Shown here: positions 16,617 through 60,476 of the stretch, piece by piece
Layout: each line of letters begins with the position of its first letter
How positions within the stretch are numbered: position 1 is the stretch's first letter
Assembly: GCA_963825525.1 (NCBI GenBank)
Contig: CAWGTN010000002.1
Span: 1,792,001 to 1,856,000 of the forward strand
Direction of reading: 5' to 3'
DNA length: 64,000 nt
DNA from: an uncultured Chloroflexia bacterium
Lineage (GTDB): Bacteria; Chloroflexota; Limnocylindria; QHBO01
Position numbers and translations under genes: made by a program
The notes under the pieces: generated by a model
The model's input: the letters and a program-made list of their open reading frames with translations, nothing else
What the model was told of the DNA's origin: nothing
Database searches by the model: none

Positions 16617-16630
16617 TACCCGGATCCACC

Positions 16631-16665: not shown

Positions 16666-16684
16666 CAACCACCACGAGAAGGTC

Positions 16685-18229: not shown

Positions 18230-19230
18230 CCGCATCGACGCGTGCGCGCACTCCCGCGTCCGGCATGCCTTCGCAGGCCATCGCCCGCTGGGCGCGCCGC
18301 AACGCGTGGCCGCTCGGCCTGCTGGCCTTCCTCTTCCTCCTGATCCTCTTCACGCGGATGATCCAGCCGCGCTACGGCGTGGCCGGCATCCAGGGGCTCG
18401 CCATCTCCGTGCTGCCGCTGGCGCTCGCCGCGGTCGCCCAGGCCGTGGTCATCATCTCCGGCGGCATCGACCTCTCGATCGGTTCGGTCATGGCATTGAC
18501 GAGTGTCGTGTCGGCGACCCTGATGGACGGTCAGAGCGCCGAGGTCGCGATTCTGGTCGTCATCGGCGTGCTGATTCTCGGCCTCGTGATCGGCGCGATC
18601 AACGGGGCCGTGGTCGTGATCACGAAGGTACCGGACATCGTCGTGACCCTGGCCATGCTCTTCATATGGGCCGGGCTCGCCCTCGTCGTGCGCTCGGCGC
18701 CCGGTGGGGGAGCGGCCGAATGGCTTCGCTCGCTCGTGCTCGGCTCGGTCGGCGTCGAGTGGGTGCCGAAGGCGGCCCTCGTCCTCGTCGTCGTGGTGGC
18801 CGCGGTCTGGATCCCGCTCTCGCGCTCGCGGATCGGGCTCTCCTTCTACGCGATCGGCAGCGACTCGCTGGCGGCATATCGCAGCGGCGTCTCGATCGGG
18901 CGGACGAAGATCCTGGCGTACGCGGTGGCCGGCCTCTTCGCGGCGCTCGGCGGCATCTCGCTCACCGCCAGCACCGGGATCGGGACGCCGGTGCCGGGCC
19001 CGTACACCCTTCTGAGCGTCGCGGCCGTCGTCCTCGGAGGCGTCAGCCTGGCCGGTGGTCGCGGAGGGGTCTTCGGGCCGATCGTGGGCGTCTTCGTGCT
19101 GCAGCTCATCCGAACCGACATGACATTCCTGAACATCAACACCAATCTCGCGGTTGTATCCCAGGGCGCCATCCTCATCGGCGTGGTGATGGTCGGCAGC
19201 CTCATCGAGCTTCGGAGGGCGCGGGCATGA
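18226..19230 (+). CDS. Sugar ABC transporter permease (RbsC-like)
   Basis: GGIDLSIG, FYAIG..AA..SG, AAVVLGGVSLAGGRG. Confidence 0.92.
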   Translation: MTASTRARTPASGMPSQAIARWARRNAWPLGLLAFLFLLILFTRMIQPRYGVAGIQGLAISVLPLALAAVAQAVVIISGGIDLSIGSVMALTSVVSATLMDGQSAEVAILVVIGVLILGLVIGAINGAVVVITKVPDIVVTLAMLFIWAGLALVVRSAPGGGAAEWLRSLVLGSVGVEWVPKAALVLVVVVAAVWIPLSRSRIGLSFYAIGSDSLAAYRSGVSIGRTKILAYAVAGLFAALGGISLTASTGIGTPVPGPYTLLSVAAVVLGGVSLAGGRGGVFGPIVGVFVLQLIRTDMTFLNINTNLAVVSQGAILIGVVMVGSLIELRRARA

Positions 19231-36417: not shown

Positions 36418-37292
36418 ATGCAGCAGGTCACCCCGAACGTCCGCACGGCCACCGATATCCGCGGCTGCAACCCGAGCTACGTGACGACCGCCGACGGGGT
36501 GGTGGTGATCGACACGCCGCAGCTGCCGACGCGGGCCGTGGCCATGCGCGAGGAGGCGGAGGCGTTCGGGCCGATCCGATACGTGGTGAACACCGAGCAC
36601 CACGTCGACCACATCTTCGGCAACTACTACTTCAAGGGCGCCGGCCGGATCGTCCATCACCAGGGCGTGGCGGACAACTTCATGGTCGTCGGGCCGATCC
36701 TCGACCCATTCGCGTACGCCGCCGAGGCGATTCCCACCAACGACCCCGAGGGCGCCGGCATCTTCCCGGAGCGCGACGTCTACGAGGCCGATCCGAACCG
36801 AGGCCAGATCGTGTTCAGCGGGCGACCTTACGCTGGACGTCGGCGAGCACACGTTTCGAGCTCATCCACACGCCCGGGCACACGCCGGGCCAGGTGGCCG
36901 TCCACGTTCCCGCCGAGCGCGTGGTGTTCACCGGTGACACCGTGTTCAGCGAAGTCCAGACCTGGCTCATGGCCTCCGACATCGAGGAGTGGGTGATCGC
37001 CCTGGACCGCATCGCCGCCCTCGACGTGGACCACGTCGTGCCCGGCCACGGCCCGGTGACGACCACGGCCTACCTGGCGACCCAGAAGGCGGTCCTGCTC
37101 GAGTGGCGAGCTGCGGTGGCCGATGCGGTGGCCAGGGGCTGGTCACGCGAGGAGACGATCGCCCGGGTGAACTTTGCGGACCGCTTCCCGGTCGACATCG
37201 GGCAGGAGTACATGATGGAGTACATCCAGAAGCACAACGCCGGCGCGCTGTGGGACCGGCTCAGTGCCCCATTCCGTCGAGGCCCGAGCTGA
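36418..37292 (+). CDS. MBL-fold metallo-hydrolase (two apparent +1 frameshifts, about 36822 and 36855)
   Basis: IDTP, NTEHHVDHIFGN; the corrected frame reads SGDLTLDVGEHTFELIHTPGH, then FTGD and VPGHG. Confidence 0.85.
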
Positions 37293-38179
37293 GCGACTAT
37301 CACCTCCACCTCCATCCACACACGCCGGTCCCCGGTGCCCCGCCGATGGGCGTCTATCCGCCGGGATACATCGACCGCTACGTCGAGGCGGCGCTGGCCC
37401 GCGGGGTGCGCGAAATCGGCTTCACCGAGCACCTGTACCGATGCGTGGAGTCGGAGCCGGCCCTCGGCCGGTGGTGGGAGCGCGACGCTGATCCGCGACT
37501 CGGAGCCGAGTTCGGTGAATGGATTGCCGGGCAGCGCACGCTCTCGCTCGAGCGTTACGTGGAGGTCGTCCTCGACGCCAAGGCGCGCGGCCTGCCCGTC
37601 AAGCTCGGACTCGAGGTGGACTTCGTCCCCGGAACCGAGCGGGCCGTGCTCGACCTGCTGTCCGGGATCCCGTTCGACTACCTGGTGGGGTCGATTCACT
37701 GGATCGGCGCCTGGAACTTCATGCGTGACTCGGCGGTGGCGGAGTTCGCTCAGCGCGGAGCCGACCGGGTATTCGCCGAGTACTTCGCCCTCGAGGCGAG
37801 CCTTGCTGCATCGGGAATGGTCGATGCGCTCGCCCACGTGGACGTCATCACCCGGCACCGCATCCGCCCGGATGGCAGCCTGGCCGATCTCTACCGGCCC
37901 GTTGTCGCGGCGGCGGTTGCCAGCGGCACGGCGGTGGAGGTGTCGAGCGCCGGGCTGCGTCACGAGGTCGGCGTGGTCTATCCCGCGCCCGAGTTCCTCT
38001 CGCTCTTCCATGAAGCGGGTGTCGGCATCACGCTCGCAAGTGACGCGCATCTCCCCGAAGACGCCGGATGGGGCCACGACGAGGTCCTTGTCGCCGCGCG
38101 CCGGGCGGGCTACCGCGAGTACCTCCGCTTCTCGGCGCGCCAGCGTCTGCCCACGCCGTTGGCGGGCGAGGACTCCTAG
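37289..38179 (+). CDS. PHP-domain histidinol-phosphatase (HisJ) family protein; start codon appears to be CTG
   Basis: DYHLH, GFTEH, GLEVD, GSIH, AH.D, E.SSAG, SDAH.P. Confidence 0.85.
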   Translation: MSDYHLHLHPHTPVPGAPPMGVYPPGYIDRYVEAALARGVREIGFTEHLYRCVESEPALGRWWERDADPRLGAEFGEWIAGQRTLSLERYVEVVLDAKARGLPVKLGLEVDFVPGTERAVLDLLSGIPFDYLVGSIHWIGAWNFMRDSAVAEFAQRGADRVFAEYFALEASLAASGMVDALAHVDVITRHRIRPDGSLADLYRPVVAAAVASGTAVEVSSAGLRHEVGVVYPAPEFLSLFHEAGVGITLASDAHLPEDAGWGHDEVLVAARRAGYREYLRFSARQRLPTPLAGEDS

Positions 38180-40438
38180 CCCTCGGCGCTTCGGTCACGG
38201 ATGGCTCGCCAGATCCGTTCGGGCGTGATCGGCAGATCTCGGAGGACGACGCCGGTGGCATCGGTCACGGCCGACGCGATGGCCGGAGCGGTCGACAGCA
38301 GCCCACTCTCACCGGTGCCCTTCGACCCGTACGGGCCGGGTCCGTCCTCGTTCTCGATGAACAGCGAGGTCATCTCGAGGGGCACGTCCTTGGTGGTCGG
38401 GATGCGGTAGTCGAGCGCGCCGAGATTCGCGACCCGACCGACCTCGTCGAACACGAGGTGCTCCATGAGGGTCTGGCCGATGCCCATGATCGCGGCGCCC
38501 TCGTCCTGCATCGCCACGTGGCCCGGATTCAGTGCCTTGCCGACGTCCGACACGGTCACGTGACGCAGGAGCTCCACCTCGCCGGTCTCGGAGTCCACCG
38601 CCACCTCGGAGGCGGTGCAGCTGAACTCGTAGAAGGCCGCGTGCCCGCCGAGCGGATGCCCCGCAACGTGGGCGCCGCGTCGCTCGCCGGTGCCGATGAC
38701 CTCGCCAAGCATCGGCCCGAAAGCCCGCGTCATGATCTCGACGAAGCCGACCTCCCGGTCGCCGATGCGCAGAACGCCATTGCCGGGCTCAACCTCCTCC
38801 GGCGGCACCTGCTCCAGCTCGGCCGCCATCTCGCGCACCTTTGCCTTGACGTCCCGGCAGGCGTTCAACACGGCCGTGCCCATGAATACCGTCGAGCGGC
38901 TGGCCGAGGTCTGCATGTCGTACGGCGCGGCCGACGTGTCACCCATGACGATGTCAACCCGCTCGAGGCCGACGCCGAGCTCCTGCGCGGCGATCTGCGC
39001 CAGCACCGTCCGCGCGCCCTGGCCCATGTCGGAGGTCCCCGCCAGCACCGTGACGCTTCCGTCATGCAGCAACCGAACGATTGCATACGAGGCCCCGGTG
39101 GTCGCGGACGACTTGATTCCCAGCGCGATGCCCCGGCCCCGTCCCTTCGGGGTCGGCGTTCCCCAGCCGATGGCGTCGGCGGCGGCTCGCACGGCCTGCT
39201 CCCACTCGCCATCGGCCGGCGTGTCGCCCGCGCCGCGCACGATCGCCTCGCCACGTCGCGCCAGGTTGCGGAGCCGGATCTCCAATCGGTCCATGCCCAG
39301 CAGACGCGCACCCTCGTCCATCTGCGATTCGAAGGCCCACGCCATCTGCGGGCTTCCGAAGCCGCGCAGTGCGGTGGCCGGTGGCGTGTTCGAGAGGAGT
39401 GCGCGCACGTGGATCCGCGCGTGCGGGACGCGGTACGGCCCACAGGCCAGGTAGCTGCTCTTCGAGACCACGCGGTGGCCGATGTCCGCGTACGCCCCGA
39501 GCAGTCCGTCGCTGACGATGTCCTGGAAGGCGATGGTCCCGTCGCGCTCGAAGCCCGTGCGGATCGGCGATCTCGAAGGTGGGTGATCTGACCGCCTGGA
39601 ACGTCTCCTCCAGGGTGAGGATGAGGCGGACCGGGCGCCCGGTCCGCAGCGCCAGCAGCGCCAGCAACGGCTCGAACTTGGCGTGCTGCTTGCCGCCGAA
39701 TCCACCGCCCGGGTCGGGGGCGAAGACGCGGACGCGCGAGAGCGGCATGCCCAGCGTCTCCGCGACAAGGCGCTGGAGCACGTAGGGATGCTGGATGGAG
39801 CTCCAGATGGCCACGCCGTCGCCGTCGGGCGCGGCCATGAACCCATGGGGCTCGATCGCGAAGTGGGTGGTTGAGGCGGCGGTGTATCGGCGTTCGACCA
39901 CGTGCTCGGCGGTCGCGCCCTCCACGTCGCCCCAGCCGAATCGCCACTCGGTGAGGATGTTCGTGGCGCGGAACTCGTCGTCCGCTGCTCGCAGCTGCGG
40001 GTTTCGGACGAGCGGGGACGCGGGGTCGAGCGCCTGCGCGACGGTCAGCACCGCGGGGAGGGCCTGATGCTCGACGCGCACCAGGCGCGCCGCCTCGTCG
40101 GCGGCATCCCGCGTTTCGGCCACGACCGCCGCCACCGGCTCGCCGTGGTACGTCGTCTCGTCAACGGCAAGCAGCGGCCGGTCGGCGTAACCGGGTCCGA
40201 AGCGCGGAACAGGTTGCGGCAGCTGCTGTGCGGTGACCACGGCGATGACGCCCGGGACGCGTTCAGCGGCGGCCGTGTCGATCCGGTCAATCCTGGCTCG
40301 GGCGACGTCGAGATGCACCAGCCGCACGTGCTGGACTCCCTCGAGCGCGATATCGGCAACGTAGCGCTGCGCACCGTTGACGCGTTCGGTCCCGCCGATC
40401 CGTCGCTCCGACCTGCCGATCGGATCTGGACGCGTCAC
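38176..40438 (-). CDS. Xanthine dehydrogenase family molybdopterin-binding subunit (apparent +1 frameshift at about 39565)
   Basis: GGGFGGK, LRGFGSPQ, DMGQG, SRST, DYRIP, KGTGE (catalytic Glu); own GGGAGG RBS before GTG at 40438. Confidence 0.9.
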
Positions 40439-40921
40439 CGGTCGTCCTCCCGCCGACTCCGCCGCGACGCCCACGGCCTCGCAGATCTGGTTGTAGCCGC
40501 CACATCGGCACAGGTTGCCGGACAGTCCCTCGCGGATCTCCGCCGCGGTTGGACGCGGGATGCGCGCCAGCAGGTACTCGGCCGACATGACCATTCCCGG
40601 GATGCAGAACCCGCACTGGACGCCGCCGGTGGCGAGGAACGCGTCCTGGACCCGATCCAGGCGGTCGCCGTCTGCCAGTCCCTCGACAGTCGCCACGTCC
40701 CGGTCCGCGGCCTCGACCGCGAGCACGAGGCACGAGTTCACCGCGTGGCCGTCGAGCAGCACGGTGCACGCTCCACATTCACCCTCCGCACAGCATTCCT
40801 TGGTCCCCGTGAGGCCGATGTCGTCGCGCAGCATGTCGAGAAGGGTGTGGTGGACCGGGACGTCGACCTCGCGGCGCGTCCCGTTGACCCGCACGGACAT
40901 GCGCATGCGGTCGGTGGTCAC
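40435..40921 (-). CDS. Xanthine dehydrogenase family 2x[2Fe-2S] subunit (stop probably lost to a +1 error)
   Basis: CAEGECGAC...C and QCGFC...NLCRC. Confidence 0.9.
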
Positions 40922-41772
40922 GCTGCGCCTCCGGCCAGGTTGGCCAGCGCGCGGTCGAGCGCGCGCCGGCTCAGCACCAGGAGCATCGCCTCGCGGTACT
41001 CGCGGCTGGCCCGCACGTTCGAGATGGGTGCCGCCTGCGACGTGAGGCGGGCGAGGATCTCCTCACGGTCGGCGGGTGCGGCGCTCAGATCCGCCAGGTC
41101 GCCGGTCTCGTCCGAGACCAGGAACGCGCGGGGGCCGACCGCGCCGTAGGCGAAGGTCGTGATGCCTGATGCGGAAACCGTGCACGCCAGGTTCACGGTT
41201 GCGAGGTCGACGCCGCGCCTCCGCGTCATGCGCCCGAACGATGATCCGCGGCGCTCGGTCGGCATCGGCAGCTCGATGGCGCTGACAATCTCGCCGGATC
41301 CGAGAACGGTCCGGCCCGGGCCGGTGAGGAACTCGTCGAGGGAGACGCGACGCGTGCCCGCAGAGCTGGTGAGCTCCACCACCGCTCCGTACACGAGCAA
41401 CGGAGGCACCGTGTCGGCAGCGGGGGAGGCGTTGCAGATGTTGCCGGCCAGCGTCGCGCGGTTCCGAATCTGGATCGAGCCCACCACGCTCGCCGCCTCG
41501 ACCAGCGCGGGAAAGTCGTGGCCGATCAGATCGTCCTCGATCAGCGAGGTGATGACCGCCGTGGCACCGATTCGCACCGATGACGCCCGCCGTTCGATGC
41601 CGGATTCCAGCTCAGCGACCCGCTTGATGTCGATGACGAGCGGTGCGTGGAACTTGCCCTTCCGCAGGCCGACGATGAGGTCAGTGCCACCGCACAGGAC
41701 GCGGGCCTGCGGCGCGTCGCGCAGCAGCTCGAACGTCTCGGCGAGCGACTCCGGTCGAGCGTAGGCGAACAT
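40918..41772 (-). CDS. Xanthine dehydrogenase family FAD-binding subunit (CoxM-like)
   Basis: GGTDL, QIRNRATLAGN.CNASPAAD, P....RAS.EYR. Confidence 0.92.
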   Translation of the reverse strand: MFAYARPESLAETFELLRDAPQARVLCGGTDLIVGLRKGKFHAPLVIDIKRVAELESGIERRASSVRIGATAVITSLIEDDLIGHDFPALVEAASVVGSIQIRNRATLAGNICNASPAADTVPPLLVYGAVVELTSSAGTRRVSLDEFLTGPGRTVLGSGEIVSAIELPMPTERRGSSFGRMTRRRGVDLATVNLACTVSASGITTFAYGAVGPRAFLVSDETGDLADLSAAPADREEILARLTSQAAPISNVRASREYREAMLLVLSRRALDRALANLAGGAA

Positions 41773-41780
41773 CGGCGTCG

Positions 41781-42443
41781 TCAGCCCGTCTCGAGGACCT
41801 GGCTCTCGGCCTGGCGTGCATGCGTGCGCATGACGTCGGCCGCGGCATCGGGATCGCGCGCTTCCAGGGCATCGAGAATCGCGACGTGCCGCTCGGCGAG
41901 CCAGTGGAGGTCAGCGCCGGGGACCGACGCGGTGAGATAGGATCGCGCAAAGGGCTCGAGCATCGACCACATTCGCTGGAGCGTCCGGTTGCCCGATGCC
42001 GTGATGACGCAGGTGTGGAACTCGGAGTTCTGCTGTGCCTGGGCGTGCGCGTCGCCGGCATCGGCACTCGCGCGCATCGCGTCCAGCAGCTCGCGCATCC
42101 GGGTCAGTGTCTCGGGGCTGATGAGCCTGGCCGCGCTTCGGGCCGCGATCGCCTCGAGCTCGCCGCGCAGCTCCATCGCCTCGACCAGCTCCTGGGGGTC
42201 CGGTTGGCGGACCCGCGCGCCGCGGTACGGATGCATCTCCACCAGGCCCAGCGTGGCCAGATCCCGGAGTGCCTCGCGCACCGGTGCCTGGCTTGTCCCG
42301 AGCTGCCGCGCGATCCGGGTCTCGATGATCCGTGATCCCGGAGCGAGCTCTCCCTCGAGGATCCACTGCAGCATCCGGTCCTTGACCTGGGCGCTCAGGA
42401 CGCTGCGCGCGAGTGGGATCCCGGAGGAATCGAGGGCGGCCAT
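41781..42443 (-). CDS. GntR family regulator, FadR/FCD subfamily
   Basis: I..G.L.PG.RI.E..IA..LGTS..PVREAL; FCD N..FH, H..I..AL. Confidence 0.92.
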   Translation of the reverse strand: MAALDSSGIPLARSVLSAQVKDRMLQWILEGELAPGSRIIETRIARQLGTSQAPVREALRDLATLGLVEMHPYRGARVRQPDPQELVEAMELRGELEAIAARSAARLISPETLTRMRELLDAMRASADAGDAHAQAQQNSEFHTCVITASGNRTLQRMWSMLEPFARSYLTASVPGADLHWLAERHVAILDALEARDPDAAADVMRTHARQAESQVLETG

Positions 42444-42444
42444 G

Positions 42445-42735
42445 TCAGTCCATGGTCACATACAGGGCGCGTTCACGGCGCTCCAGGCGCGGGACGGCCT
42501 CACCGCGCACGAGCCGCTCGAAGTGCTCGGTCGCGAGGTGTGCCTGGAAGCCGGCCTCGTCGTCGTACTGCTCGTACAGGAAGAAGTCGTGGGGATCCTC
42601 CGGCGATTGGTGAGTGATGAAGAGGCGACAGGCGGGCTCGGCGCGCACGAGCGGCGCAATCTCGCCGAGCAGCCGTCGGACCTCGTCCTCCTCGCCGTCC
42701 CTCGCTCGCCAGGTCGCGGCGACCACGTAGGTCAT
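42445..42735 (-). CDS. Antibiotic biosynthesis monooxygenase (ABM/YgiN-like) protein
   Basis: R.EP.C, FFLYEQY.D..GF.AH..T.HF. Confidence 0.85.
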   Translation of the reverse strand: MTYVVAATWRARDGEEDEVRRLLGEIAPLVRAEPACRLFITHQSPEDPHDFFLYEQYDDEAGFQAHLATEHFERLVRGEAVPRLERRERALYVTMD

Positions 42736-44498
42736 GCGCTGAACAGGTCGTTGCGAGGCTGAGCCGCAGCCTCGAGGATCTCGACCGTCCCGGTGCCACC
42801 GTCCACCCGGATCCGATCTCCGGTATTGACGCGCTCGGTTCCGTCCTGGGTGCCGACCACGGCGGGGATGCCGAACTCACGGGCCAGCACCGCCGGATGA
42901 GCGGTGAGGCCACCGGCGTTCGTCACGAGGCCGGCGATCTTCGTGAACAGCGCGACCCAGGCAGGGTTGGTCATGTGGCAGACGAGGATATCGCCGGCAC
43001 GGACCCCGTCGAACTGGTCCTCGCGCAGCACGACGCGAGCGGTGCCCTCGATGACGCCCGGTGAGCCGCCGATGCCGCTGAACTGACCGGCCACGTCGCC
43101 CTGCTTGCGATGGAACTTCTCGGGGAAGCCCCAGTTCGTCAGGTACGGGAATGCCAGCTGGCTCTCGGTGGCCGTGCCGATCCAGGCGGGTGGGCGGAAG
43201 CCGTAGGCCCTCTCGCGCTCTGCGCGCCGCTCGGCGACGATCGCGCGCGCGTCCATTCCCGCTGGATCACCCATGAATACTCGCAGCTCGTTGTAGCGCA
43301 GGAAGATCACGTCGTCGGGCTGGTCGAGGGCCCCGAGCTCGACCAGCTTGCGCCCGATGGCGATCAGCACCACCCGCAGGTGAGCATTCGCTCCCTGGTC
43401 GATGTAGAAGTGATGGTCGGGGGTCAGTGGCGCCATCCGCAGGTTGACCTCGTTGGCCGAGCGCATCTCCTCCAGCGCCTCACCCTCCAGAACCTCGAGG
43501 ATCTCGCGTGACGCCGCCTCGATGTCGTCCTTCAGGCTGCCCACCGTCGCCGGATAGTCGTAGTCGGTCTCGACGTATCCACGCACGAGCTCGATCACCG
43601 GCTCCATCTGCTCGTACACCGTCGGGAAGACGAACTCGTGGCTCCACACCGCGTGCCAGCCGAACTCCTTCTGGTACGGCTTCACGCGCTCGCCGATGAA
43701 GCTCCGACCGCGCTCTGAGCCCTCGAGTGCGGCAATGACTTCGCCGGCGCTCTCATGCTCGAATGACGATGTCAGGTCGGCGTCGGACATCACCTCCTGC
43801 TTCATCTCCCACAGGGCGCGGATCGAGTCCCAGTTGCGATCGCTCGCCGAGTTCTGGAGCCGCCCCAGGAGGGCCTCGTCGACCGTGCCGTGGGTCTTCT
43901 CCATCACGGCGCGCAGCTTGAGGGTGGCCGACAGCTGCGCGAAATTGAGCATCCAGTGGATCTTCCAGTGGCGATCGTGGATGTCGATGGCGTCCTCGAA
44001 CAGGACGGCCAGCTCCATGAGCGTCATCGAATCCTGGCGGTCGAGCACCTTCTCCAAGTAGGCGAAGTTGCCCTCCATCTCCGGGACGAGCCGATCACGC
44101 CACCAGTCCACGAAATTCTCGCCGTACACCGGCAGCACCGCGTCGAGATAGGTGCCGATCTTGTCGCTGTACTCCGGATCCAGCGGGACCCTGGCGCCGT
44201 AGCGTGCTCCGTACTCCATGGCGTCGACCCGCCAGGCGGGGTCAGCCGGCACGGCAGCCGTGAACAGGTAGCCGTTCACGTTCTTGGTGAGCCAGTCGCA
44301 GGCGAACGGAGTACCGAACCGCCGGAACATGTGATCGCAGGTCAGCCACCAGCCGCCGATCTCGTAGAACATCGGGCTCAGCGGATGCGGGCAATGGAGA
44401 TCGTCGAAGACCCAGAAGAGCGCCTGCTCCTGCTCCGACTCCCACGTGATCGGGAACTCGTCTGACCCGAGGAACTGGTCGAGGATCGGCTCGCTCAT
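42732..44498 (-). CDS. PEP-utilising-family protein: substrate-binding domain plus phospho-His swivel domain, no ATP-grasp (phenylphosphate synthase alpha-like architecture)
   Basis: C-terminal GSPG..EG.ARV, GDILVC..TNP.W, GGLTAHPAVLAREFGIPAVVG, VDG..G.V; N-terminal FWVFDDLHCPHPLSP. Confidence 0.82.
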   Translation of the reverse strand: MSEPILDQFLGSDEFPITWESEQEQALFWVFDDLHCPHPLSPMFYEIGGWWLTCDHMFRRFGTPFACDWLTKNVNGYLFTAAVPADPAWRVDAMEYGARYGARVPLDPEYSDKIGTYLDAVLPVYGENFVDWWRDRLVPEMEGNFAYLEKVLDRQDSMTLMELAVLFEDAIDIHDRHWKIHWMLNFAQLSATLKLRAVMEKTHGTVDEALLGRLQNSASDRNWDSIRALWEMKQEVMSDADLTSSFEHESAGEVIAALEGSERGRSFIGERVKPYQKEFGWHAVWSHEFVFPTVYEQMEPVIELVRGYVETDYDYPATVGSLKDDIEAASREILEVLEGEALEEMRSANEVNLRMAPLTPDHHFYIDQGANAHLRVVLIAIGRKLVELGALDQPDDVIFLRYNELRVFMGDPAGMDARAIVAERRAERERAYGFRPPAWIGTATESQLAFPYLTNWGFPEKFHRKQGDVAGQFSGIGGSPGVIEGTARVVLREDQFDGVRAGDILVCHMTNPAWVALFTKIAGLVTNAGGLTAHPAVLAREFGIPAVVGTQDGTERVNTGDRIRVDGGTGTVEILEAAAQPRNDLFSA

Positions 44499-44533
44499 CG
44501 CGGCATGGCACCTCTCGTCGCTGTGCGTGAAGG

Positions 44534-44552
44534 ATCGATCATCGATGATAAT
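44534..44552. promoter_or_regulatory. Palindrome ATCATCGATGAT with tandem ATCGAT, overlapping divergent -10-like hexamers
   Basis: Perfect 12-bp palindrome at 44538-44549 in a 62-bp divergent gap; GATAAT (+) and TATCAT (-) overlap it. Confidence 0.45.
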
Positions 44553-44560
44553 GCAGCGCG

Positions 44561-46100
44561 ATGACCAGCCGCTACGTCCACGACTTCGATTCGACCCCCG
44601 ATATCGAGCCCGACGAGCTCGTTCGGCTTCTCGGCGGCAAGGGCGCCAACCTGGCGGTCATGGCCACCGAGCTTGGCCTGCCGGTGCCGCCGGGCTTCAC
44701 GATCTCGACCGAGGCGTGCGTCGCGTATCTGGGCGGCGCGTGGCCAGATGCACTTGACGATGAGCTGCGTGATCACGTCGCGCGGCTGGAGGAGCTGATC
44801 GGCCGCCGATTCGGGCACGCCGACGACCCGCTCCTGGTGAGCGTCCGCTCCGGTGCCCCGGTCTCGATGCCCGGGATGATGGACACCGTCCTGAACCTCG
44901 GGCTCAACGAGACGACCGTCCGCGGCCTTGCGGCAGCGACCGGCGATCCCGATTTCGCTGCCGACTGCCTCCGCCGATTTCACGACGGCTACCGTCAGGT
45001 GATCGGAGCTCTGGAGGCGCCGGAGGATCCGTGGCGGCAGCTCCGCGAGGCGATCGAGGCCGTGTTTCGCTCCTGGAACAGCGAGCGCGCCCAGGCGTAT
45101 CGGCGACGGGAGGGGATTCCGGACGACATCGGCACTGCGGTCACCGTGCAGGCCATGGTGTTCGGCAACCGTGGACCGGACTCGGGAACCGGCGTGCTGT
45201 TCACACGCAACCCGTCGACGGGGGAGCCGACCCTGTTCGGCGACATCATGTTCGACGCCCAGGGCGAGGACGTCGTGGCAGGCACGCATGAGCCGCAGCC
45301 GCTTGACGCGCTGGACGGTCGTCTGCCCGAGGTTGCGAAGCGAGCTTCGATCGCATGCCGATCGGCTGGAGCGGCATTACCGGGATCTGTGTGACATCGA
45401 ATTCACGATCGAGCAGGGCAGGCTGTGGCTGCTCCAGGTCCGCGCCGGCAAGCGGAGCCCGCAGGCCGCGCTGCGGATGGCGATCGACATGGCCGAGGAT
45501 GCGAGCTTCCCATTGTCACGGGAAGAGGCCGTGCGGCGGGTGGCGGCGCATCTCGCCGATCCGCCGCGGGTCTTCGTCAGCGCCGGGGATCGGCCGATCC
45601 CGATCGCGACCGGGCTGCCGGCCTCGCCGGGCGTCGGTTACGGAGCCATCGTCCTGACCTCGGACGACGCCGAGTCCGCCGCGGCCGATGGACGCACGGT
45701 GATCCTCGTCCGGAGCGAGACGTCGCCGGAGGATGTTCGCGGCATGGCCCGTTCGGAGGGGATTCTCACGGCGCGCGGGGGCCTCGCAAGCCACGCGGCG
45801 GTCGTGGCCCGCGGTTGGGGGATCCCGGCCGTGGTCGGCGCCCGTGACGTCGTGCCCGGCAATGATGGCGTCGAGATCGGCGGGCAACGGTTTGCGGCCG
45901 GAGCTGAGCTCACGATCGATGGGAGCAGCGGCGAGGTCTTCAGCGGCTCGCTGGAGGGGACGTGGGAGATGCCTCCCGAGGCGGCGACGCTGCTTGCCTG
46001 GGCCGACGAGCTTGGGGTTGAGCGTGACGCCATCCGATGCCGACGCGACTGCGGCGAAGGCCCCGACTCGCAGGCGATGCCCCAGCCGGCGAGGACGTGA
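44561..46100 (+). CDS. Pyruvate phosphate dikinase-like protein lacking the C-terminal pyruvate-binding barrel (apparent +1 frameshift at about 45340)
   Basis: LGGKGANL, PVPPGF, VRSGA..SMPGMMDT.LN, QGEDVV.G, DIEFT, LQ.R..KR, ASPG, ETSPED, GG.ASHAAVVAR; homology ends after the His domain. Confidence 0.88.
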
Positions 46101-46714
46101 CGGCCGACGACGTGCTGCGCGCACTTCTCATCAAGGGCGCAACCGAGCCCGAACAGCTCGCCGACGCTCTGCGGTCCACGGCCACGGACCTCGAGGCGGT
46201 CACGACCGAGCTCGGCGACGAGGGAGCGATCGAGCGGATCGATACGGCGCTTCGCCTGTCCACCGATGGGAAGCTTCGTGCCCGTGCGTTGATCGCCGAC
46301 GATCGGGCGGAGGTCGGCGAGGCCCGAGCCGGCGAGCTCCTGGAAGCGTTCCACGCCTTCGACGGGCGGATGAAGGAGATCGTGACCGCGTGGCAGGTGC
46401 GGGACGCGGATGGTCAGCAGACCCTCAATGATCACCAGGACGCGGAGTACGACGCACGAATCCTCGACGACCTGGCCGCGCTGCACGCCGATACCTCGTC
46501 ATGGATCGAGGCACTTGCCGTCCAGCTCGCTCGGTATGCCGGCTACCGGCAGCGGTTGACTGATGCGGTGTCACGTGCCCGGGACGGGGACCAGCGCTAC
46601 GTGGCCTCGCCGCGCGTGGACAGCTATCACGGCGTCTGGTTCGAGCTCCACGAGGACCTGATCCAGCTCGCCGGCCGGCGTCGGTCCGACGAGGCTGCCG
46701 CCGGCCGCGCCTGA
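46097..46714 (+). CDS. Winged-helix-like protein resembling the mycobacterial ppdK neighbour (Rv1126c-like); possibly the fused C-terminus of the upstream gene
   Basis: VLRAL.IKG, F...D..MK..VT.WQ, Y..RL..A, DSYH.VWFELHEDLI motif, recognised from memory. Confidence 0.68.
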   Translation: MTADDVLRALLIKGATEPEQLADALRSTATDLEAVTTELGDEGAIERIDTALRLSTDGKLRARALIADDRAEVGEARAGELLEAFHAFDGRMKEIVTAWQVRDADGQQTLNDHQDAEYDARILDDLAALHADTSSWIEALAVQLARYAGYRQRLTDAVSRARDGDQRYVASPRVDSYHGVWFELHEDLIQLAGRRRSDEAAAGRA

Positions 46715-46715
46715 G

Positions 46716-47522
46716 TCAGCCCTCGCTGACGGACCACCCGCCGTCCACGTCGATCACCTGCCCGGTGATCATGCGCGCGCCCGGCCCCAGCAGATGGAGC
46801 GCGGTGGGCGTGACGTCCTCCACCTCGATCGGCCCGCGCGCCCGTGGCTGTTTGCGCTCGAGGAAGGCTCGTACCGCGGGGTCCTCCTGGGCTCGCCGGC
46901 TCATCGGCGTGGCGACCAGGGACGGGGCGATGGCGTTGACCCGGATGCCGTGGGTGGCGTAGGCCGAGGCCATCGAGCGGGTCAGGGCCTCGATCCCGCC
47001 CTTGCTGGCGGCGTAGGCGTGGGTGCCGAAATGCTCTGCCGATGGATGGCGGGACAGCACGCTCGACATGTTGAGGATGACGCCGCGCTCGCCGTGCGCG
47101 TCCGGCTCCTGGGTGAGCATCTGGCGCACGACGGCGCGGCAGACGAGGAAGAGGCTGGTCAGGTTGCCGCCGATGACCGCCTCCCAGCCGGCCAGCGACG
47201 CCTCGTGCACGGGACCGTCGCCGAAGCGGCGGCCGCTGATGCCCGCGACGTTGTAGGCGGCATCGATCCGGCCGAAGCGCTCGATCGCCGCCGAGACGGC
47301 CCGTTCGGCGTCATCTTCCCGGGCCAGGTCGGCGCTCTCGTACGCCACCGAACCGCCACCGGACTCGATCTCGGCCGCCAGCGAACGGACACGCTCTGGG
47401 TCCCGCGCGACGAGGAACACGCTGCCGCCCTCGTCGGCGATCGCGCGGGCGGCCGATGCGGCCATTCCCGTCGACCCGGTGACGAGGGCGACACGACCCT
47501 CGAAGCGGCCGGGATGGGTCAT
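46716..47522 (-). CDS. SDR oxidoreductase
   Basis: NVAG.SG, YAASK, NAIAP, DGGW. Confidence 0.9.
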   Translation of the reverse strand: MTHPGRFEGRVALVTGSTGMAASAARAIADEGGSVFLVARDPERVRSLAAEIESGGGSVAYESADLAREDDAERAVSAAIERFGRIDAAYNVAGISGRRFGDGPVHEASLAGWEAVIGGNLTSLFLVCRAVVRQMLTQEPDAHGERGVILNMSSVLSRHPSAEHFGTHAYAASKGGIEALTRSMASAYATHGIRVNAIAPSLVATPMSRRAQEDPAVRAFLERKQPRARGPIEVEDVTPTALHLLGPGARMITGQVIDVDGGWSVSEG

Positions 47523-48159
47523 GACCCGGCGATCAGCCGCACGAGGTCGCGGCGTGCTGCGGCATCGGCCTTCGTGATGGCGCTCCCAACGCCCACGGCG
47601 ACGGCCCCGGCCTCGAGGTAGGCGATCGCGTTGCCGGCGTCCACGCCGCCGGTCGGGATGAGCTCCACTTCTGTCATCGGGCCTCGCACCTCACGGACCA
47701 TGGCCGGCCCCGACGGCCGAGGCGGGAAAGAGCTTGACCATGGTTGCACCTGCCGCCCACGCCGCGCCGATCTCGGTCGGGGTCATGGCGCCGGGAATGA
47801 AGGGGAGTCCCCGCCTCGGTGGATGAACGAAGCAGGTCGAGGTCGAGGAGCGGCGCCACCGCAAAGTCGGCGCCGGCCCCGCGGGCTGCGGTCAGCTGGT
47901 CGCCCGTTCGCACCGTTCCCGCGCCGACCAGGAACGGGCCGTCGTCACGTCGGCCGAGATCGGCCCGCAGCGCCGCGAGGTCCTCCGCGCCCGCCGCCGA
48001 GTCCAGGGTGACCTCGAAGATCCTGGCGCCCGCGTCGGCGAGCTCACGGGCCATGGTCAGCAGGTGCTCGCGGGGCTCGATCCGTCGAAGGACCACGACC
48101 AGCCGATGACGGCGGATGGCCTCGGCCACCGGGCTGCGCCGCAGCTCGAGGGCGGTCAT
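47519..48159 (-). CDS. KDPG/KHG aldolase family protein (two apparent +1 frameshifts, about 47810 and 47745)
   Basis: VVLR, EVTL, VGAGTV, GA.F.VAP; corrected PGAMTPTEI, VK.FP, PTGGV, AVGVGS. Confidence 0.82.
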
Positions 48160-49453
48160 CGGGCCAACGCCGCGGGAAGCGGATCCAGCAACGCTCCGTC
48201 GGCTTGAAGCCGGTCGCGCAGGGCGACTGGCATCCACGCTCCGTGGCGTCGTCCGCGACGCCACTGCCATGGCGGCGGCGGTCCCGGCGGCCTGCCCCAT
48301 GGCCATGCAGGTCGCCATCGAGCGGGCCGAGGCATGGGCGTCGTGCGTGGCCGAGAAGCATCTGCCCGCGACCAGCAGCCCCTCGACATCCTGCGGCAGG
48401 AGCGATCGGTACGGAATGCCATAGACGCCGGACTCGTCGACGTAGCGCCATTCGGTGTCGCCGCCGGCGTGGTGATCCTCGATCGGTGCGCCGCACAGGG
48501 CGATCTCATCGTCGAAGCGGCGCGCCTGGAGCACGTCCTCGCGGGTCAGCCGGTAGTCACCGTGCACGCGACGGCTCTCGCGGACGCCGATCGACGGGCT
48601 GGTGGCGACGACGACCGACGCCTCGAAGCCGGGGACCCGGTCGCGCAGGAAGCGGGCGTACTCGCGCACCTGGCGGCGGCCCTCGACCTCGGCGCGGGTG
48701 AGCTGCTCCGGGATCCGTGGCGTCGACGTTCGGGATGCGGGTCATGTGGATGAGCACGATCCCCTCGAAGGGAGTCCGATGCCACGACCCCTCGATGCGC
48801 GGCAGGCGGTAGTCGCCCGAATCGGCGGCCGCTCGCATGAGCTCCCAGAGCTCGGCCTTGGGGACGGCCGACGCACGCGCGACGTCCACGTTCGCGACCT
48901 TGAACAACGTCGAGAGCGACTGGACCTGCCCGGTGGCCTGCGCATTCTCGTACGGAACCCCGGCCAGGGCGCTGACATCGGCATCACCTGAGGCGTCAAC
49001 GATCGCATCGGCGCCGATGAACCGTTCGCCGCCCTTGTTCCAGATGCGGATGCCGGTGATGCGGTCACCATCCATGGTCACGCCGGTGACCCAGGTGTGG
49101 AGCAGCAGCTCAACGCCCGCATCCTCGGCCAGCTGCTCCCACAGCAGCTTGAGCGCCTCCTGGTCATACGTGACGCCCGTGCCCGCTCCGTAGGTGTTCG
49201 GCCGCTCGAAGGCCACGCCATCGCCCGTGAGGCGTTCGACCACCTCCCAGCCGATGCCGCCCACGACCCGTCGTGGATCCTCGCCGGGTGTGTAGAACGC
49301 GTAGAACGTGTCGAGCACGGCGGTCGAGGTGCCACCCATGAACCCGAGCCGGTCGACGAGCAGCGTCGAGGCGCCGGACCGAGCCGCCGCGATGGCGGCC
49401 GTCGACCCGGCCGATCCGGAGCCGACCACGGCAACGTCGTAGCGGTCCCTCAC
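48156..49453 (-). CDS. FAD-dependent oxidoreductase (two apparent +1 frameshifts, about 48712 and 48225)
   Basis: GSGSAG..AA..AAR.G, MGG..T, DASGDAD, GVRESRR, YGIPYRSL.P, LLVAGRC.S, R.M..C..MGQAAG.AA. Confidence 0.85.
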
Positions 49454-50406
49454 GATGCAGTCCCCGCGAGGGCGAAGGCACGGGCCGGGTTGTTGACCAG
49501 GATGCTGTCGACCGCGTCGCCGCCGATCCGACTGCGGAGGCGCGGGACGAACGTCTCCATGAGGTAGCGCAGGCCCGGGCCGCCTCCGTAGGCGCGAAGC
49601 ATCGATCGCCGGCCCATGTCGAGGCCGAGCATGATCCGATCGAGGTGACCGGCGCCGGCGACCGCCTCGATCAGGCCCAGGATCTCGCTGTCGGGCCGGT
49701 ACTTGGTGCGCCCGATGGTGTCGTACTCGAGAAACACGCCTCGTGCGGCGATCTCGGCGTGGAGCTCGGGATCGGGGTTGCGATCCATGTGGGCCAGGAT
49801 GATCCGGTCGTTCGCGAGCCCATGCCCGGTGAGGATGTCGACGATCTCGTGACCGAACGTCCCCACCTCGGCGTGGACGAGGACGGCGACTCCTGCCCGC
49901 AGCGCGCCGATCGCCGAGGCCTCGAGACGCCGACGCTCGGCATCGCTGGCGTGGTGGTACGACGCCCCGGCCTTGATGACGCCGGCCCGAGCTTCGTCCG
50001 GCATGGCATCCGGGTCGTCCCAATCGCCGGGGTGCATGCCGACTTCGAGGTCGCGCACGACCCTGTCGGCCAGCATCTCGACCGACGCCTCATGCACCCA
50101 GTGACCCGCCGGGTAGTGCGCGTCGCGGTGATAGCCGGTGGCGCCGATGATCGGCATGCCGCTGGCCGTCGAGACCGCGCGGAGGAGGTCCGGTCGTCGC
50201 CCCAGTCCGATCGGTGTGACGTCGACGATGGTCCCGATTCCACTCTCGCGGCCCTCGAGGGCCTCGGCGGTGGACAGCCCGAGATCCTCGAACTCGTCGC
50301 CGGGAAGGGCTGGAGTACGGAGAAAGAGGTGGTCGTGGGCATCCACCACGCCAAGACGGGAGACCGGCACGGCGCCGGTCACGGTCATCACCTCGGGCTC
50401 GGGCAC
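49450..50406 (-). CDS. Phosphotriesterase-family (PTE/Php-like) metallo-lactonase
   Basis: HDHL, VD.TP.G.GR, ATG, G.IK, VHAE, AH.DR, YD, G.D, NPAR. Confidence 0.9.
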   Translation of the reverse strand: MPEPEVMTVTGAVPVSRLGVVDAHDHLFLRTPALPGDEFEDLGLSTAEALEGRESGIGTIVDVTPIGLGRRPDLLRAVSTASGMPIIGATGYHRDAHYPAGHWVHEASVEMLADRVVRDLEVGMHPGDWDDPDAMPDEARAGVIKAGASYHHASDAERRRLEASAIGALRAGVAVLVHAEVGTFGHEIVDILTGHGLANDRIILAHMDRNPDPELHAEIAARGVFLEYDTIGRTKYRPDSEILGLIEAVAGAGHLDRIMLGLDMGRRSMLRAYGGGPGLRYLMETFVPRLRSRIGGDAVDSILVNNPARAFALAGTAS

Positions 50407-56864: not shown

Positions 56865-57928
56865 CAGGATCCGCCCTCGCCGGACGTGGCATCGGCCGTC
56901 TCGCGTGCGTCGCCGGCCCAGCCGTCGGGTGCCTGCTTCGGGCCGATGAAGGCCATGTGGGACCGCAGCTCGGCGCCGACCTCCTCGAGCCGCGAGCCCG
57001 CGTTCTCGGCGCGCATCCGCTTGAACTCCGGCGCGCCCTTGCGGCCCTCCTCGATCCAGCGCTTCGCGAACGTCCCGTCCTGGATCTCGGTCAGGATGCG
57101 CTTCATCTCGGCCCGGGTCTCCGCGTTGACGATCCGCGGGCCGGACACGTAGTCGCCGTACTCGGCGGTGTCGCTGATCGAGTAGCGCATGTACTGCATG
57201 CCGCCCTGGTACATGAGATCGACGATGAGCTTGAGCTCGTGCATCGTCTCGAAGTACGCGAGCTCAGGCTGGTACCCCGCGTCCACCAGCGTCTCGAACC
57301 CGGCCTGGACCAGCGACGTGACGCCGCCGCACAGGACGGCCTGCTCGCCGAACAGGTCGGTCTCGGTCTCCTCGGCGAACGTCGTCTCCAGGATTCCGGC
57401 CCGTCCCGCACCGATGCCGCGCGCGTAGGCGAGCGTGCGCTGGCGAGCGGTCCCGGTCGCGTCCCGATGCACCGCGAACAGGGCGGGGACGCCACCGCCG
57501 CCCTCGTACAGGCGTCGGACGAGGTGCCCCGGGCCCTTCGGCGCGACCATGCCGACGTCGATGCCGGCGGGCGGGTCGACCTCGCCGAAGTGGATGTTGA
57601 AGCCGTGGGCGAACATCAGCAGCGCCCCGTCGGCCAGGTTCGGCTCGATCTCGCCGTGGTACACGGCCGGTGCCGCGGTATCCGGCACGAGCACCATGAC
57701 CACGCTGGCACGAGCCGTTGCGCTCCCGGCATCGGTCACCTCGAGGCCGGCCTCGCGTGCGCGCTCGGCGGACGTGGAGTCGGGTCGCAGACCGACCACC
57801 ACCCCGACGCCGGACTCGGCGAGGTTGCGGGCGTGTGCCTCGCCCTGGCTGCCGTAGCCGATGACGGCCACCGTCTGGCCGGCCAACGCCGATGGATCGA
57901 TGTCGGCGTCGTAGATGAGCTTGGTCAT
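56864..57928 (-). CDS. ilvC: Ketol-acid reductoisomerase
   Basis: [47 protein letters not shown]. Confidence 0.96.
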
Positions 57929-58496
57929 TCCGGTGTGGCTCCGTTCTCGGTATCGCTGGATGAATCCGCTGCCATGGCCACGGCACCGGCACGCACGAGG
58001 CGGCGCAGACCGTGGCCGCGAAGCGCCTCCAATGCGCGGTTGATCGCGTCGGGTTCGGCCGTCAGGCGGGCGCGCCAGGCCGATGCATGGCGGGTCAGGA
58101 TCTCGCCGCCGGCCGACGCCAGGACGCCCTCCAGCTCGCGCTTGTCGGCCGTGCCGCGCGGCGGGGTCAGCTCGACCAGGACGAGCTCGAGCTCGAGGTG
58201 CGGTGCGCTCGTCAGGTCCGTCACCTCGAGGACCTCGATGAGTCGCTCGAGCTGGGCGAGGACCTGGCGGAGGTGGCCGTCGTCCCCGCGGATGGCGATC
58301 GTCATGCGTGAGTGGCCCGGTTCGTGGGTCGTGCCCACCGTCAGCGACTCGATGTTGAAGCTCCGCGCGCGGAGCAGCCCCGCGACGCGGTTGAGCGTTC
58401 CGGGTCGGTCGACCACCAGCGCGCTGACGATGTGGCGTCGGTGGACCGCATCGGCCTCGCCGGCCGGTCGAGTCTGACGGGCAGCTGCCATGGCGC

Positions 58497-58500
<4 letters not shown>
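57925..58500 (-). CDS. ilvN: Acetolactate synthase small (regulatory, ACT) subunit
   Basis: [33 protein letters not shown]; GTGA overlap with the corrected ilvB stop. Confidence 0.9.
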
Positions 58501-60243
<1,743 letters not shown>

Positions 60244-60264
60244 GGTTATCGGGTCCTCTGGGAG

Positions 60265-60301
60265 AAACAAGAACCCCGCCTGGCTCTCGGCCTGGCGGGG
60301 T
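60265..60301 (-). terminator. Attenuator terminator upstream of ilvB
   Basis: Minus strand ACCCCGCC-aggccgagagcca-GGCGGGGT-TCTTGTTT. Confidence 0.85.
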
Positions 60302-60332
60302 GGCGGTTGCGCTGTTCGGGTTGCCTGTCCGG

Positions 60333-60476
60333 CTACTCGGTCGAGCGTCCTCCATCCCGCCATCCAAGAAGGATGACGAGCCGAAGAATGCTGATGAGTA
60401 CGAGCACGCCGAGGATCCCGGACGAAGCCGGGCGCACGGTGGACTCGGCGGCGACAGTGCCGCGCTCAGTGGACAT
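60333..60476 (-). CDS. ilv operon leader peptide (47 aa)
   Basis: MSTERGTVAAESTVRPASSGILGVLVLISILRLVILLGWRDGGRSTE*; 14 of 17 consecutive codons are Ile/Leu/Val. Confidence 0.85.
   Translation of the reverse strand: MSTERGTVAAESTVRPASSGILGVLVLISILRLVILLGWRDGGRSTE

Follow-up and report, generated by a model that had tools for sequence, protein, structure and literature searches.

A PPDK-derived protein as candidate ATP-binding partner of a PpsA-like acceptor in molybdenum-enzyme gene clusters of uncultured Chloroflexota

A 64,000-nucleotide stretch of contig CAWGTN010000002.1 from an uncultured Chloroflexia bacterium (hereafter the window) carries a gene cluster, at 38176–46714, in which two divergent dikinase-type genes stand next to a three-subunit molybdenum (Mo) enzyme of the xanthine dehydrogenase (XDH) family. 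By its domain content, the first of the two encodes the acceptor half of a split dikinase of the rifampin phosphotransferase (RPH)/PpsA type, 588 amino acids long. The second encodes a short pyruvate phosphate dikinase (PPDK) of ~715 amino acids, and related loci suggest that in the lineage of the window this PPDK-derived protein has replaced the PpsB/HpeI-type partner of such acceptors. We regard it as somewhat probable that the acceptor receives its phosphoryl group from the short PPDK in an ATP-dependent way; the acceptor would then phosphorylate a ring hydroxyl, in the same pathway as the Mo enzyme. From the conserved arrangement we infer a catabolic module in which the multi-part dikinase and the three-subunit Mo enzyme act on a hydroxylated aromatic or N-heteroaromatic compound. 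The window has a G+C content of 70%, its host genome (2.58 Mb on four contigs) is 91.8% complete, and the nearest named database relatives of the acceptor come from Candidatus Limnocylindria and other uncultured Chloroflexota.

The acceptor gene (42732–44498, minus strand) encodes a substrate-binding region of ~470 amino acids followed by a C-terminal phosphohistidine swivel. A preliminary description of this DNA, made from the letters alone, had reported the swivel histidine and the lack of an ATP-grasp, and Pfam bears this out: the sole local match is the swivel domain of phosphoenolpyruvate (PEP)-utilizing enzymes (PF00391, residues 500–570), PPDK_N is absent and the motif GGLTAHPAVLARE is present. 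An alignment to the NCBIfam model PRK08296.1-5 spans residues 21–576, counted as full length, and the last 200–400 residues (the C-terminal half) align to the RPH, PigC and RedH models of NCBIfam, covering RPH positions 681–864. The best solved chains, 5fbs and 5hv1 in the PDB, match over residues 375–576; they are deposited as 'phosphoenolpyruvate synthase', and we take them to be rifampin phosphotransferase structures. For the N-terminal part, the source database holds a precomputed family, PF27448, which is not in the local Pfam copy. The catalytic histidine is invariant in all 45 aligned orthologues, at a mean column identity of 76%. The protein thus has the RPH-type substrate region and the swivel histidine near the C terminus that mark the acceptor of a two-component dikinase. 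According to a recent account (JBC 2025, PMC12167813), HpeHI, PpsAB(C), CreHI and AcvAB are such two-component small-molecule dikinases, rifampin phosphotransferase being a single-chain relative, and HpeH and PpsA likewise leave the nucleotide site to another polypeptide.

Across a gap of 62 bp (44499–44560), which confirms the divergent pair as first described, lies the gene of the short PPDK (44561–46714, plus strand). It encodes an ATP-grasp, a swivel histidine (GGLASHAAVVAR), a flexible linker, and a C-terminal winged helix with a four-helix domain (the tail), and in the window it runs through frames +2, +3 and +2. The preliminary description had taken 44561–46100 for one truncated PPDK. 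Its ATP-grasp, histidine swivel and missing barrel stand, but this span consists of two overlapping open reading frames (ORFs; 44561–45394 and 45171–46100) in different frames, over which the PPDK_N and PEP-utilizers matches of Pfam are divided. Nor is the protein simply truncated, as the gene runs on into a third ORF (46037–46714), where a conserved domain of ~225 amino acids stands in place of the pyruvate barrel. A Pfam search matched no PF02896-type barrel, so that PF01326 and PF00391 are the only families present, which is the layout of a VadK-type short PPDK. An intact relative (locus L007) aligned to TIGR01828 over positions 192–526 of 865 only and scored 540.2 bits against a cut-off of 843.45, as would not be expected of a canonical full-length PPDK with its TIM barrel. 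The ATP-grasp and swivel region nevertheless scores 422 bits against the solved Clostridium symbiosum PPDK chains, and the protein is only 28% identical to the PpsB-type protein of Thermomicrobium roseum. Its swivel histidine and ATP-grasp residues are invariant in 44 orthologues.

To see how the two genes travel together, we used a scan of one genome per species, which returned 599 stretches, 595 of them confirmed, for relatives of the acceptor. Because the acceptor is so strongly conserved across its 45 orthologues and at least 595 stretches of this species-level collection encode a relative, its substrate is probably a common soil compound. From the 595, the best 80 loci were taken with 10-kb flanks (acceptor identity 68–83%), and 41 of these have at least 9 kb on either side. 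Among these 41 full-flank loci, XDH genes and the tail occur in all, the short PPDK in 40, the GntR regulator in 36 and the small ABM-family protein (for antibiotic biosynthesis monooxygenase) in 9; acceptor, short PPDK and XDH genes therefore co-occur in 40 of 41, a co-occurrence that the preliminary description had put forward as a check. The short PPDK was seen in 62 of all 80 loci, in three positions: adjacent and divergent as in the window (16), further upstream (13), and downstream of the Mo (XDH) genes (33). That it is kept despite such rearrangement argues for a functional tie.

The clearest indication of what this tie may be comes from more distant relatives. With the T. roseum PpsB as query, no separate PpsB-type gene was found in the 80 close loci; 22 weak matches all fell inside the ATP-grasp of the short PPDK. 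We also drew 301 Chloroflexota genomes, of which 24 held a homologue of the acceptor at E ≤1e-50, and fetched 12 loci. At 49–62% acceptor identity, seven of seven loci carry a PpsB-type, ATP-grasp-only gene in the cluster and no short PPDK; they belong to families f25, f12 and, for the Thermomicrobium group, f51, and XDH genes are present in six, the seventh being a 4.8-kb contig. In the two most distant loci (25–31% identity), PpsB lies immediately upstream and XDH genes are absent. Three loci at 66–73% identity have no PpsB-type gene: the short PPDK is complete in one, its end lies at the locus edge in another, and the contig of the third stops just past the Mo gene. When the two cluster types are compared, identity is only 29–37% for the XDH subunits and 49–62% for the acceptors. 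The proviso that homologues of the acceptor might normally sit beside a PpsB-type gene is thus borne out by half, in the more distant clusters that were fetched and never, as a separate gene, in the 80 closer ones.

An annotated cluster of the PpsB type lies on the megaplasmid of T. roseum DSM 5159 (TRD_RS09580-09640, NC_011961.1). Like the window, it combines the acceptor (49% identical) with an ABM protein, GntR (45% identical) and XDH-family Mo, FeS and FAD subunits. Unlike the window, it encodes a PpsB-type ATP-grasp protein of 323 amino acids, annotated as PEP/pyruvate-binding, together with a cyclase-family protein, the pair of UPF0261 and PEP-hydrolase, and an FAH-family hydrolase, and it has neither a short PPDK nor a tail homologue. 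ABM also occurs in the family-f25 clusters.

The rest of the host genome offers the acceptor few other partners. PF01326 is confined to two places, the present cluster and, on contig C1, a full-length PPDK, and there are four swivel domains, in the acceptor, PPDK, the short PPDK and PtsI. Three of five further genomes of the clade hold only these two PF01326 genes; each of the other two adds a third, whose open frame spans ~750 amino acids. The preliminary description had found no PpsB-type subunit in the window, and this now extends to the whole genome, in which no cognate ATP-grasp other than that of the housekeeping PPDK was found; a separate ATP-grasp-only subunit of the PpsB/HpeI type is therefore missing from the window, the genome and the 80 loci alike. 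The exchange of one ATP-binding module for another within the same clusters is the main support for the short PPDK as the ATP-activating partner.

What sets the short PPDK apart from a plain dikinase fragment is its tail. Structure models gave a pLDDT of 91.7 for the tail and 89.9 for the whole protein, with linker residues 490–511 below 50. In the predicted structure, the tail follows a disordered stretch that itself comes after the linker helix which in PPDK leads to the TIM barrel. Tail residues 27–101 form a MarR-type winged helix (VIA-align Z 12–12.8, root mean square deviation 1.5 Å over 75 residues). For the remainder, a hairpin and a four-helix bundle, VIA-align returned generic matches only (FAT domains, CheA P1) at Z 10.5–12.1, and values of ~10–12 for helical bundles are noise by the tool's own rating. 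Foldseek found no match to the tail fold in the PDB at E ≤0.001, and no Pfam or NCBIfam family covers the domain. Its C-terminal motif SPRVDSYHxVWFELHEDLI is strongly conserved, being invariant in 44 of 44 orthologues, and the invariant polar residues (tail numbering) are D116, K120, N138, H140, D142, D146, H205, E210, H212 and E213. A profile search with the tail collected 1868 cluster representatives at E ≤0.001, some of them standalone proteins of ~200 amino acids and others the C terminus of proteins of ~700–800.

These features bear on a reading in which the short PPDK is a complete dikinase in its own right, the four-helix tail serving as acceptor or substrate site for another intermediate of the same pathway, while the 588-residue protein would move phosphate between intermediates and the two genes would share a locus because they share a pathway or regulon. 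The many invariant polar residues of the tail, its position where PPDK has the PEP/pyruvate barrel, its weak likeness to the CheA P1 phosphotransfer bundle (Z 10.5) and the occurrence of the tail family without a PpsA-like neighbour are all in keeping with such an enzyme. However, the bundle matches lie within the tool's noise, Foldseek returned nothing, and an independent dikinase leaves unexplained why the PpsB-type gene is lost exactly where the short PPDK appears; we hold this reading to be very improbable.

The only short PPDK that has been studied is VadK (Rv1127c) of Mycobacterium tuberculosis. As reported (EMBO Rep 2026, PMC13400623), VadK autophosphorylates on His422 with ATP and Mg, is called a regulatory kinase of the methylcitrate cycle that acts on the enzymes of this cycle, and is co-expressed with its operonic partner Rv1126c, the removal of which took a wash with 2 M NaCl; in the published RNA-seq data, VadK exerted no transcriptional control. 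Like the short PPDK of the window, VadK as described there has an ATP-grasp and a swivel histidine, no PEP/pyruvate barrel, and a companion of ~200 amino acids next to it. In the window, by contrast, dikinase and tail are fused, and the neighbours of the protein are a PpsA-like acceptor and a Mo enzyme in place of methylcitrate genes.

The tail itself appears to be a homologue of a small actinobacterial protein whose gene adjoins that of a VadK-type short PPDK. On plasmids, tblastn with the tail found proteins of ~200 amino acids, annotated 'MarR family' or 'hypothetical', beside short PPDKs and PEP-utilizing enzymes. A Mycobacterium branderi plasmid has, in order, a 522-residue short PPDK, a tail-like protein and a 543-residue PpsA-like protein; the tail is 42% identical to this 'MarR' neighbour, and it is by analogy with the M. 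branderi arrangement that Rv1126c is inferred to be its homologue. On plasmid pRB98 of Rhodococcus oxybenzonivorans (L089, 555961–564094), a 202-residue tail-like protein and a short PPDK directly precede a gene set for biotin carrier, biotin carboxylase, carboxyltransferase, thiolase and tyrosine-type phosphatase; genes of PEP-utilizing enzymes lie close by. This layout recalls the hydroxyphenylethanone (Hpe) pathway, the short PPDK standing in the place of HpeI. The triad of short PPDK, tail-like protein and PEP-utilizing enzyme is found on the M. branderi and R. oxybenzonivorans plasmids and at locus L090.

Overall, 19 of 201 Actinomycetota genomes drawn have a tail homologue (a tally that includes the unpublished genome G125, whose locus was not fetched). 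At 17 such loci, a short PPDK is adjacent in 10, a PpsA-like gene is nearby in 3–4, and 4 have neither. The ~200-residue companion of short PPDKs is fused in 44 of the loci related to the window and standalone in 10 of 17 actinobacterial ones. A tree of the ATP-grasp and swivel region groups five canonical PPDKs of both phyla in a single clade (support 84/89) and divides the short forms among four well-supported clades of no settled mutual order, with the clade of the window apart from the M. branderi-type clade. The short-form loci for this tree were chosen by the presence of the tail, which biases the association of tail and short PPDK. The NCBIfam equivalog of Rv1127c, NF004531, gave 507.9 bits for the L007 protein against a cut-off of 456, with true short forms at 710–890 bits. 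As a proof of VadK membership this score was rejected, because the N-terminal parts of canonical full-length PPDKs also pass NF004531, in 159 of 201 Actinomycetota genomes (including the unpublished G091, G131, G191, G044, G163 and G061). The short PPDK is thus not filed as a VadK orthologue; it appears to be built, and would work, like the VadK/Rv1126c pair fused in one chain. A 205-residue neighbour in the T. roseum cluster was also considered as a tail homologue and dismissed, as BLASTP found nothing and hhalign gave a probability of 0.15%.

In the mechanism that we propose, the 588-residue protein, which has no nucleotide site of its own, would act in the manner of HpeH, PpsA and CreH, binding the small substrate and carrying the phosphoryl group on the swivel histidine at its C terminus. 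The short PPDK would take the beta-phosphate of ATP, and the phosphoryl group would reach the acceptor histidine either directly at the ATP-grasp or by way of a relay from the histidine of the short PPDK, to be passed on to a hydroxyl of the substrate. The phospho-compound could be the substrate of the Mo enzyme or a trapped form of its product. The preliminary description had likewise proposed the truncated PPDK as the ATP-activating partner of the PpsA-like protein, with the pair serving the Mo enzyme. The linkage, the displacement of PpsB, the lack of another ATP-grasp and a published case of such a pair that a Mo hydroxylase requires speak for that proposal; its gene model was wrong, it missed the tail, and VadK, a relative of the short PPDK, is described as a regulatory kinase.

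Several observations weigh against the short PPDK as phosphoryl donor. In the PpsAB/HpeHI model the ATP-grasp alone suffices, and the invariant swivel histidine of the short PPDK is unexplained unless there is a relay. The tail opens with a winged helix of the MarR type and its homologues are annotated by NCBI as MarR regulators, which fits DNA binding. VadK is described (PMC13400623) as a regulatory kinase and not as the donor for a small-molecule kinase. In actinobacteria, a PpsA-like gene is nearby at only 3–4 of the 17 loci chosen by the tail, and four have neither partner. One of the 41 full-flank loci, L065, is without a short PPDK core. The cluster in the window also carries ~5 single-letter differences in 8.6 kb, denser than the background of ~1 per 11 kb (taken up below). 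At L065 (16837–17418), the Mo gene is followed by the tail domain on its own, an arrangement that may be a natural split or a loss.

The swivel histidine would find a use in a more specific version of the donor reading, which we put forward tentatively. In it, the short PPDK with its Rv1126c-like tail would be the entry of a His-to-His phosphorelay, autophosphorylating with ATP in the manner of PPDK (possibly with conversion of Pi to PPi) and passing the phosphoryl group to the acceptor histidine, for phosphorylation of a ring hydroxyl on behalf of the Mo enzyme. If this were true, serving PpsA-like acceptors would be a general, perhaps ancestral, job of VadK-type truncated dikinases, and it would account for the unexplained dikinase requirement of some Mo hydroxylases. 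A literature search that did not extend to subscription-only papers found no work linking VadK-type proteins to PpsA-like acceptors (PEP-utilizing enzyme, phenylphosphate synthase, HpeHI).

Alternatively, the short PPDK may be a regulator, a VadK-like autophosphorylating sensor of ATP or energy that acts through a promoter palindrome or on enzymes, with the acceptor charged, for example, by the housekeeping PPDK or by a phosphorylated metabolite. Besides the regulatory role reported for VadK and the MarR-type winged helix, two points are in line with this. HpeH alone can shuttle phosphate between aromatic compounds, as stated in PMC12167813, and the divergent promoter region contains a conserved palindrome, ATCGATCATCGAT, at 44534–44546 (no strand assigned). 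This is the only exact occurrence of ATCGAT[CG]ATCGAT in the 2.58-Mb genome, and of 11 relatives that share the divergent layout, 10 conserve it. Exact ATCGATNATCGAT sites number 60 in the 80 loci and 0 in 20 shuffles, and such a site is present in the 400 nt upstream of the acceptor gene at 26 of 78 loci. We propose ATCGATSATCGAT as a candidate operator for either the GntR/FCD regulator or the winged helix of the dikinase tail. A promoter and terminator scan of 38000–47000 did not exceed shuffled sequence, with 1 terminator-like site and 0 promoter-like ones. However, the clusters already have a conserved regulator in GntR/FCD, and VadK itself did not control transcription in the published RNA-seq data (PMC13400623). 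The mutual exclusion of PpsB-type gene and short PPDK across clusters is what replacement of a function predicts, and an added regulator does not predict it; furthermore, four of six clade genomes would be left with only the PPDK of central metabolism as ATP-grasp for the acceptor. A purely regulatory short PPDK is therefore possible but, to our mind, doubtful.

Function in this genome further depends on whether the genes are intact. With the short PPDK of L007 as query, tblastn placed the window gene in frame +2 (44567–45337), +3 (45324–46022) and +2 (46085–46696). Among related loci, 55 contain the three pieces together; the short PPDK is a single ORF of 700–746 amino acids in 44 of these, while of the other 11, 6 have frame changes, 3 run off the contig end and 2 have no start that was found. 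All six frame-broken loci are records of the 'MFD' series, which we take to be long-read metagenome-assembled genomes. As a check on the breaks, we aligned short-read contigs from four public runs of four studies over 38100–46800; they stem from close relatives (90–99% alike) and not necessarily from the same strain. Relative to these contigs, the window has single extra letters at 39565, 45340/41, 46022/24 and 46065/66, the one at 39565 being missing from the contigs of runs X2 and X12, and at the junction of the 2Fe-2S and Mo genes (40449) the contigs of other runs differ by −1 or +2 letters. A frame-path script based on codon position listed 48 frameshift candidates in the surrounding 518 kb (G000:C2:1500001-2018507), 6 of them in the window. 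Because the short-read contigs lack the extra letters and frameshift candidates occur throughout the assembly, we ascribe the breaks in short PPDK and Mo subunit, as the most likely cause, to errors in the consensus of a long-read assembly. The assembly probably carries ~1 indel error per 10 kb, and 'truncated' or 'fused' genes of this genome need checking.

Real decay, with a module that works in relatives and is non-functional in this genome, is nonetheless retained as an unlikely alternative, because the breaks are locally denser than the background. A patchy distribution also fits it: the acceptor orthologue was found at E <1e-100 in 5 of 41 relatives of the genus searched, a tally that counts the host genome itself (G000) and includes the unpublished G006. 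Against decay, the differences are all one-letter insertions in the window relative to contigs of four studies, the 'MFD' records are similarly broken, and the genes for the acceptor, ABM, GntR and the FAD subunit are intact. The same kind of split affects other genes of the window, namely a metallo-beta-lactamase (36418–37292, two ORFs) and an FAD oxidoreductase with a KDPG aldolase (47519–50023, overlapping pieces). The region 14648–19230 is also listed among those with genes split by frame changes.

A dikinase pair beside a Mo hydroxylase has one published genetic precedent. As set out in a preprint (bioRxiv 10.1101/2020.01.08.898148), the 3hpd cluster of Ensifer adhaerens HP1 comprises HpdA1-4, which is 3-hydroxypyridine dehydrogenase, with orf9, a 'pyruvate-phosphate dikinase', and orf10, a 'PEP-utilizing protein mobile subunit'; this pair is genetically essential for the Mo-enzyme-dependent conversion of 3-hydroxypyridine, in a role left unexplained. 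Compared by its description and not by sequence, the Ensifer cluster resembles the window in that XDH-family Mo, FeS and FAD subunits stand next to a two-gene dikinase pair and a GntR gene, and the window thereby shows the layout of a dikinase-dependent Mo hydroxylase. In the window, the ATP-binding protein differs in having a swivel histidine of its own and a fused tail, and among the window ORFs scanned, which were chosen by codon-position GC, there are no Pfam families of an SRPBCC subunit (HpdA3) or of the maleamate-pathway hpdBCDE. From HpeHI and PpsAB the window departs twice over, as its partner is of the PPDK type with its own swivel and tail and not an ATP-grasp-only protein of the PEP-synthase/RPH type, and as its cluster is coupled to a Mo enzyme and not to a carboxylase. 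A literature search, again outside subscription-only papers, found no follow-up on the Ensifer dikinase requirement.

Two questions thus meet in this cluster, namely why a Mo hydroxylase needs a dikinase pair and what VadK-type PPDKs pass their phosphate to. The swap of PpsB and short PPDK in otherwise equivalent clusters offers a concrete, testable hypothesis for both, for which genes of uncultured soil Chloroflexota and the cultured T. roseum are usable, non-pathogenic material. Split dikinases, a dikinase pair required by a Mo hydroxylase, and truncated autophosphorylating PPDKs are already in print. Our analysis adds the quantified swap, a fold for the tail together with its connection to the actinobacterial companion, the operator motif, read-based evidence that the breaks are likely artefacts, and the failure of NF004531 to separate short from full-length PPDKs.

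Downstream of the acceptor gene, the run given in the preliminary description (ABM, GntR, then the FAD, 2Fe-2S and Mo subunits) was confirmed by Pfam, with all genes on the minus strand. The small ABM-family protein (42445–42735) matches PF03992 at E 1.5e-17, and the regulator (41781–42443) has GntR and FCD domains. The FAD subunit (40918–41772, 284 amino acids) has FAD_binding_5 and CO_deh_flav_C and scores 182.9 bits on the NCBIfam model XdhB, under its cut-off of 310. The 2Fe-2S region (40454–40921; Fer2 and Fer2_2; tblastn frame −1, 40888–40454) reads through into the Mo subunit in a single frame, whereas the two are separate, overlapping genes in relatives such as L007, in which the 2Fe-2S protein has 163 amino acids. 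The molybdopterin subunit (38176–40534; Ald_Xan_dh_C, MoCoBD_1 and MoCoBD_2) is split by the extra letter near 39565: tblastn frames are −1 at 40534–39548 and −2 at 39582–38191, and MoCoBD_1 is shared out over the two ORFs (positions 7–134 and 139–244).

Among solved structures, the intact L007 Mo subunit comes closest to 4-hydroxybenzoyl-CoA reductase, in its alpha subunit (313.6 bits), followed by quinoline 2-oxidoreductase (231.9 bits) and then CO dehydrogenases. The beta subunit of 4-hydroxybenzoyl-CoA reductase has an extra iron-sulfur insertion. We rejected an identity with this reductase, as the two Mo pieces of the window score 162.3 and 266.3 bits on TIGR03194 (cut-off 994.55), the FAD subunit scores 116.1 bits on TIGR03195 (cut-off 404.55), and the FAD subunit is unlike the special beta subunit of the reductase; NCBIfam equivalog scores for the Mo enzyme are all far under their cut-offs. 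No UbiD was found in a search of the whole genome, in agreement with its reported absence from the window.

Further genes recur around the acceptor in relatives. A divergent transaldolase/FSA-family gene lies beside it in 48 of 80 loci (for example L007:11784-12902, 123 bits on PF00923); the orthologue in the host genome is 155 kb away (C2:1992733-1993786, 67–68% identity) and is itself in two frames. Most relatives have, between GntR and the FAD subunit, a protein of ~300–338 amino acids without a family name (L029:12421-13437, L014:13740-14744, L115, L116, L117), which is absent from the window and the host genome. As a hidden PpsB this ~338-residue protein was rejected, having no Pfam or NCBIfam match and no similarity to PpsB; as a lead only, Atlas puts it near 'PEP carboxykinase family' and HPr-kinase-like clusters. 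Other genes that recur in relatives and not in the cluster of the window encode an SDR, a metallo-beta-lactamase, a zinc alcohol dehydrogenase and a split transketolase. Adjoining the acceptor, UPF0261 (Tm-1-like, MarK family) occurs in 9 of 80 loci and a PEP-hydrolase-like gene in 7 of 80 (T. roseum L087, 6490–8593; L029, 7554–9946; L041, 8553–9806), 72–76% identical across lineages. Recent work showed UPF0261 to be an aromatic kinase, MarK; together with the PEP-hydrolase it may add another type of aromatic kinase to these clusters. The host genome has no UPF0261.

Elsewhere in the host genome, a second XDH-family locus (C2:313285-316182) encodes Mo and FAD subunits that are 31–34% identical to those of the cluster. 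Finally, a single ORF of 812 amino acids at 57925–60363 of the window combines the three thiamine pyrophosphate-enzyme domains of acetolactate synthase with the ACT domain of the small subunit, and is either a natural fusion or an indel-caused read-through.

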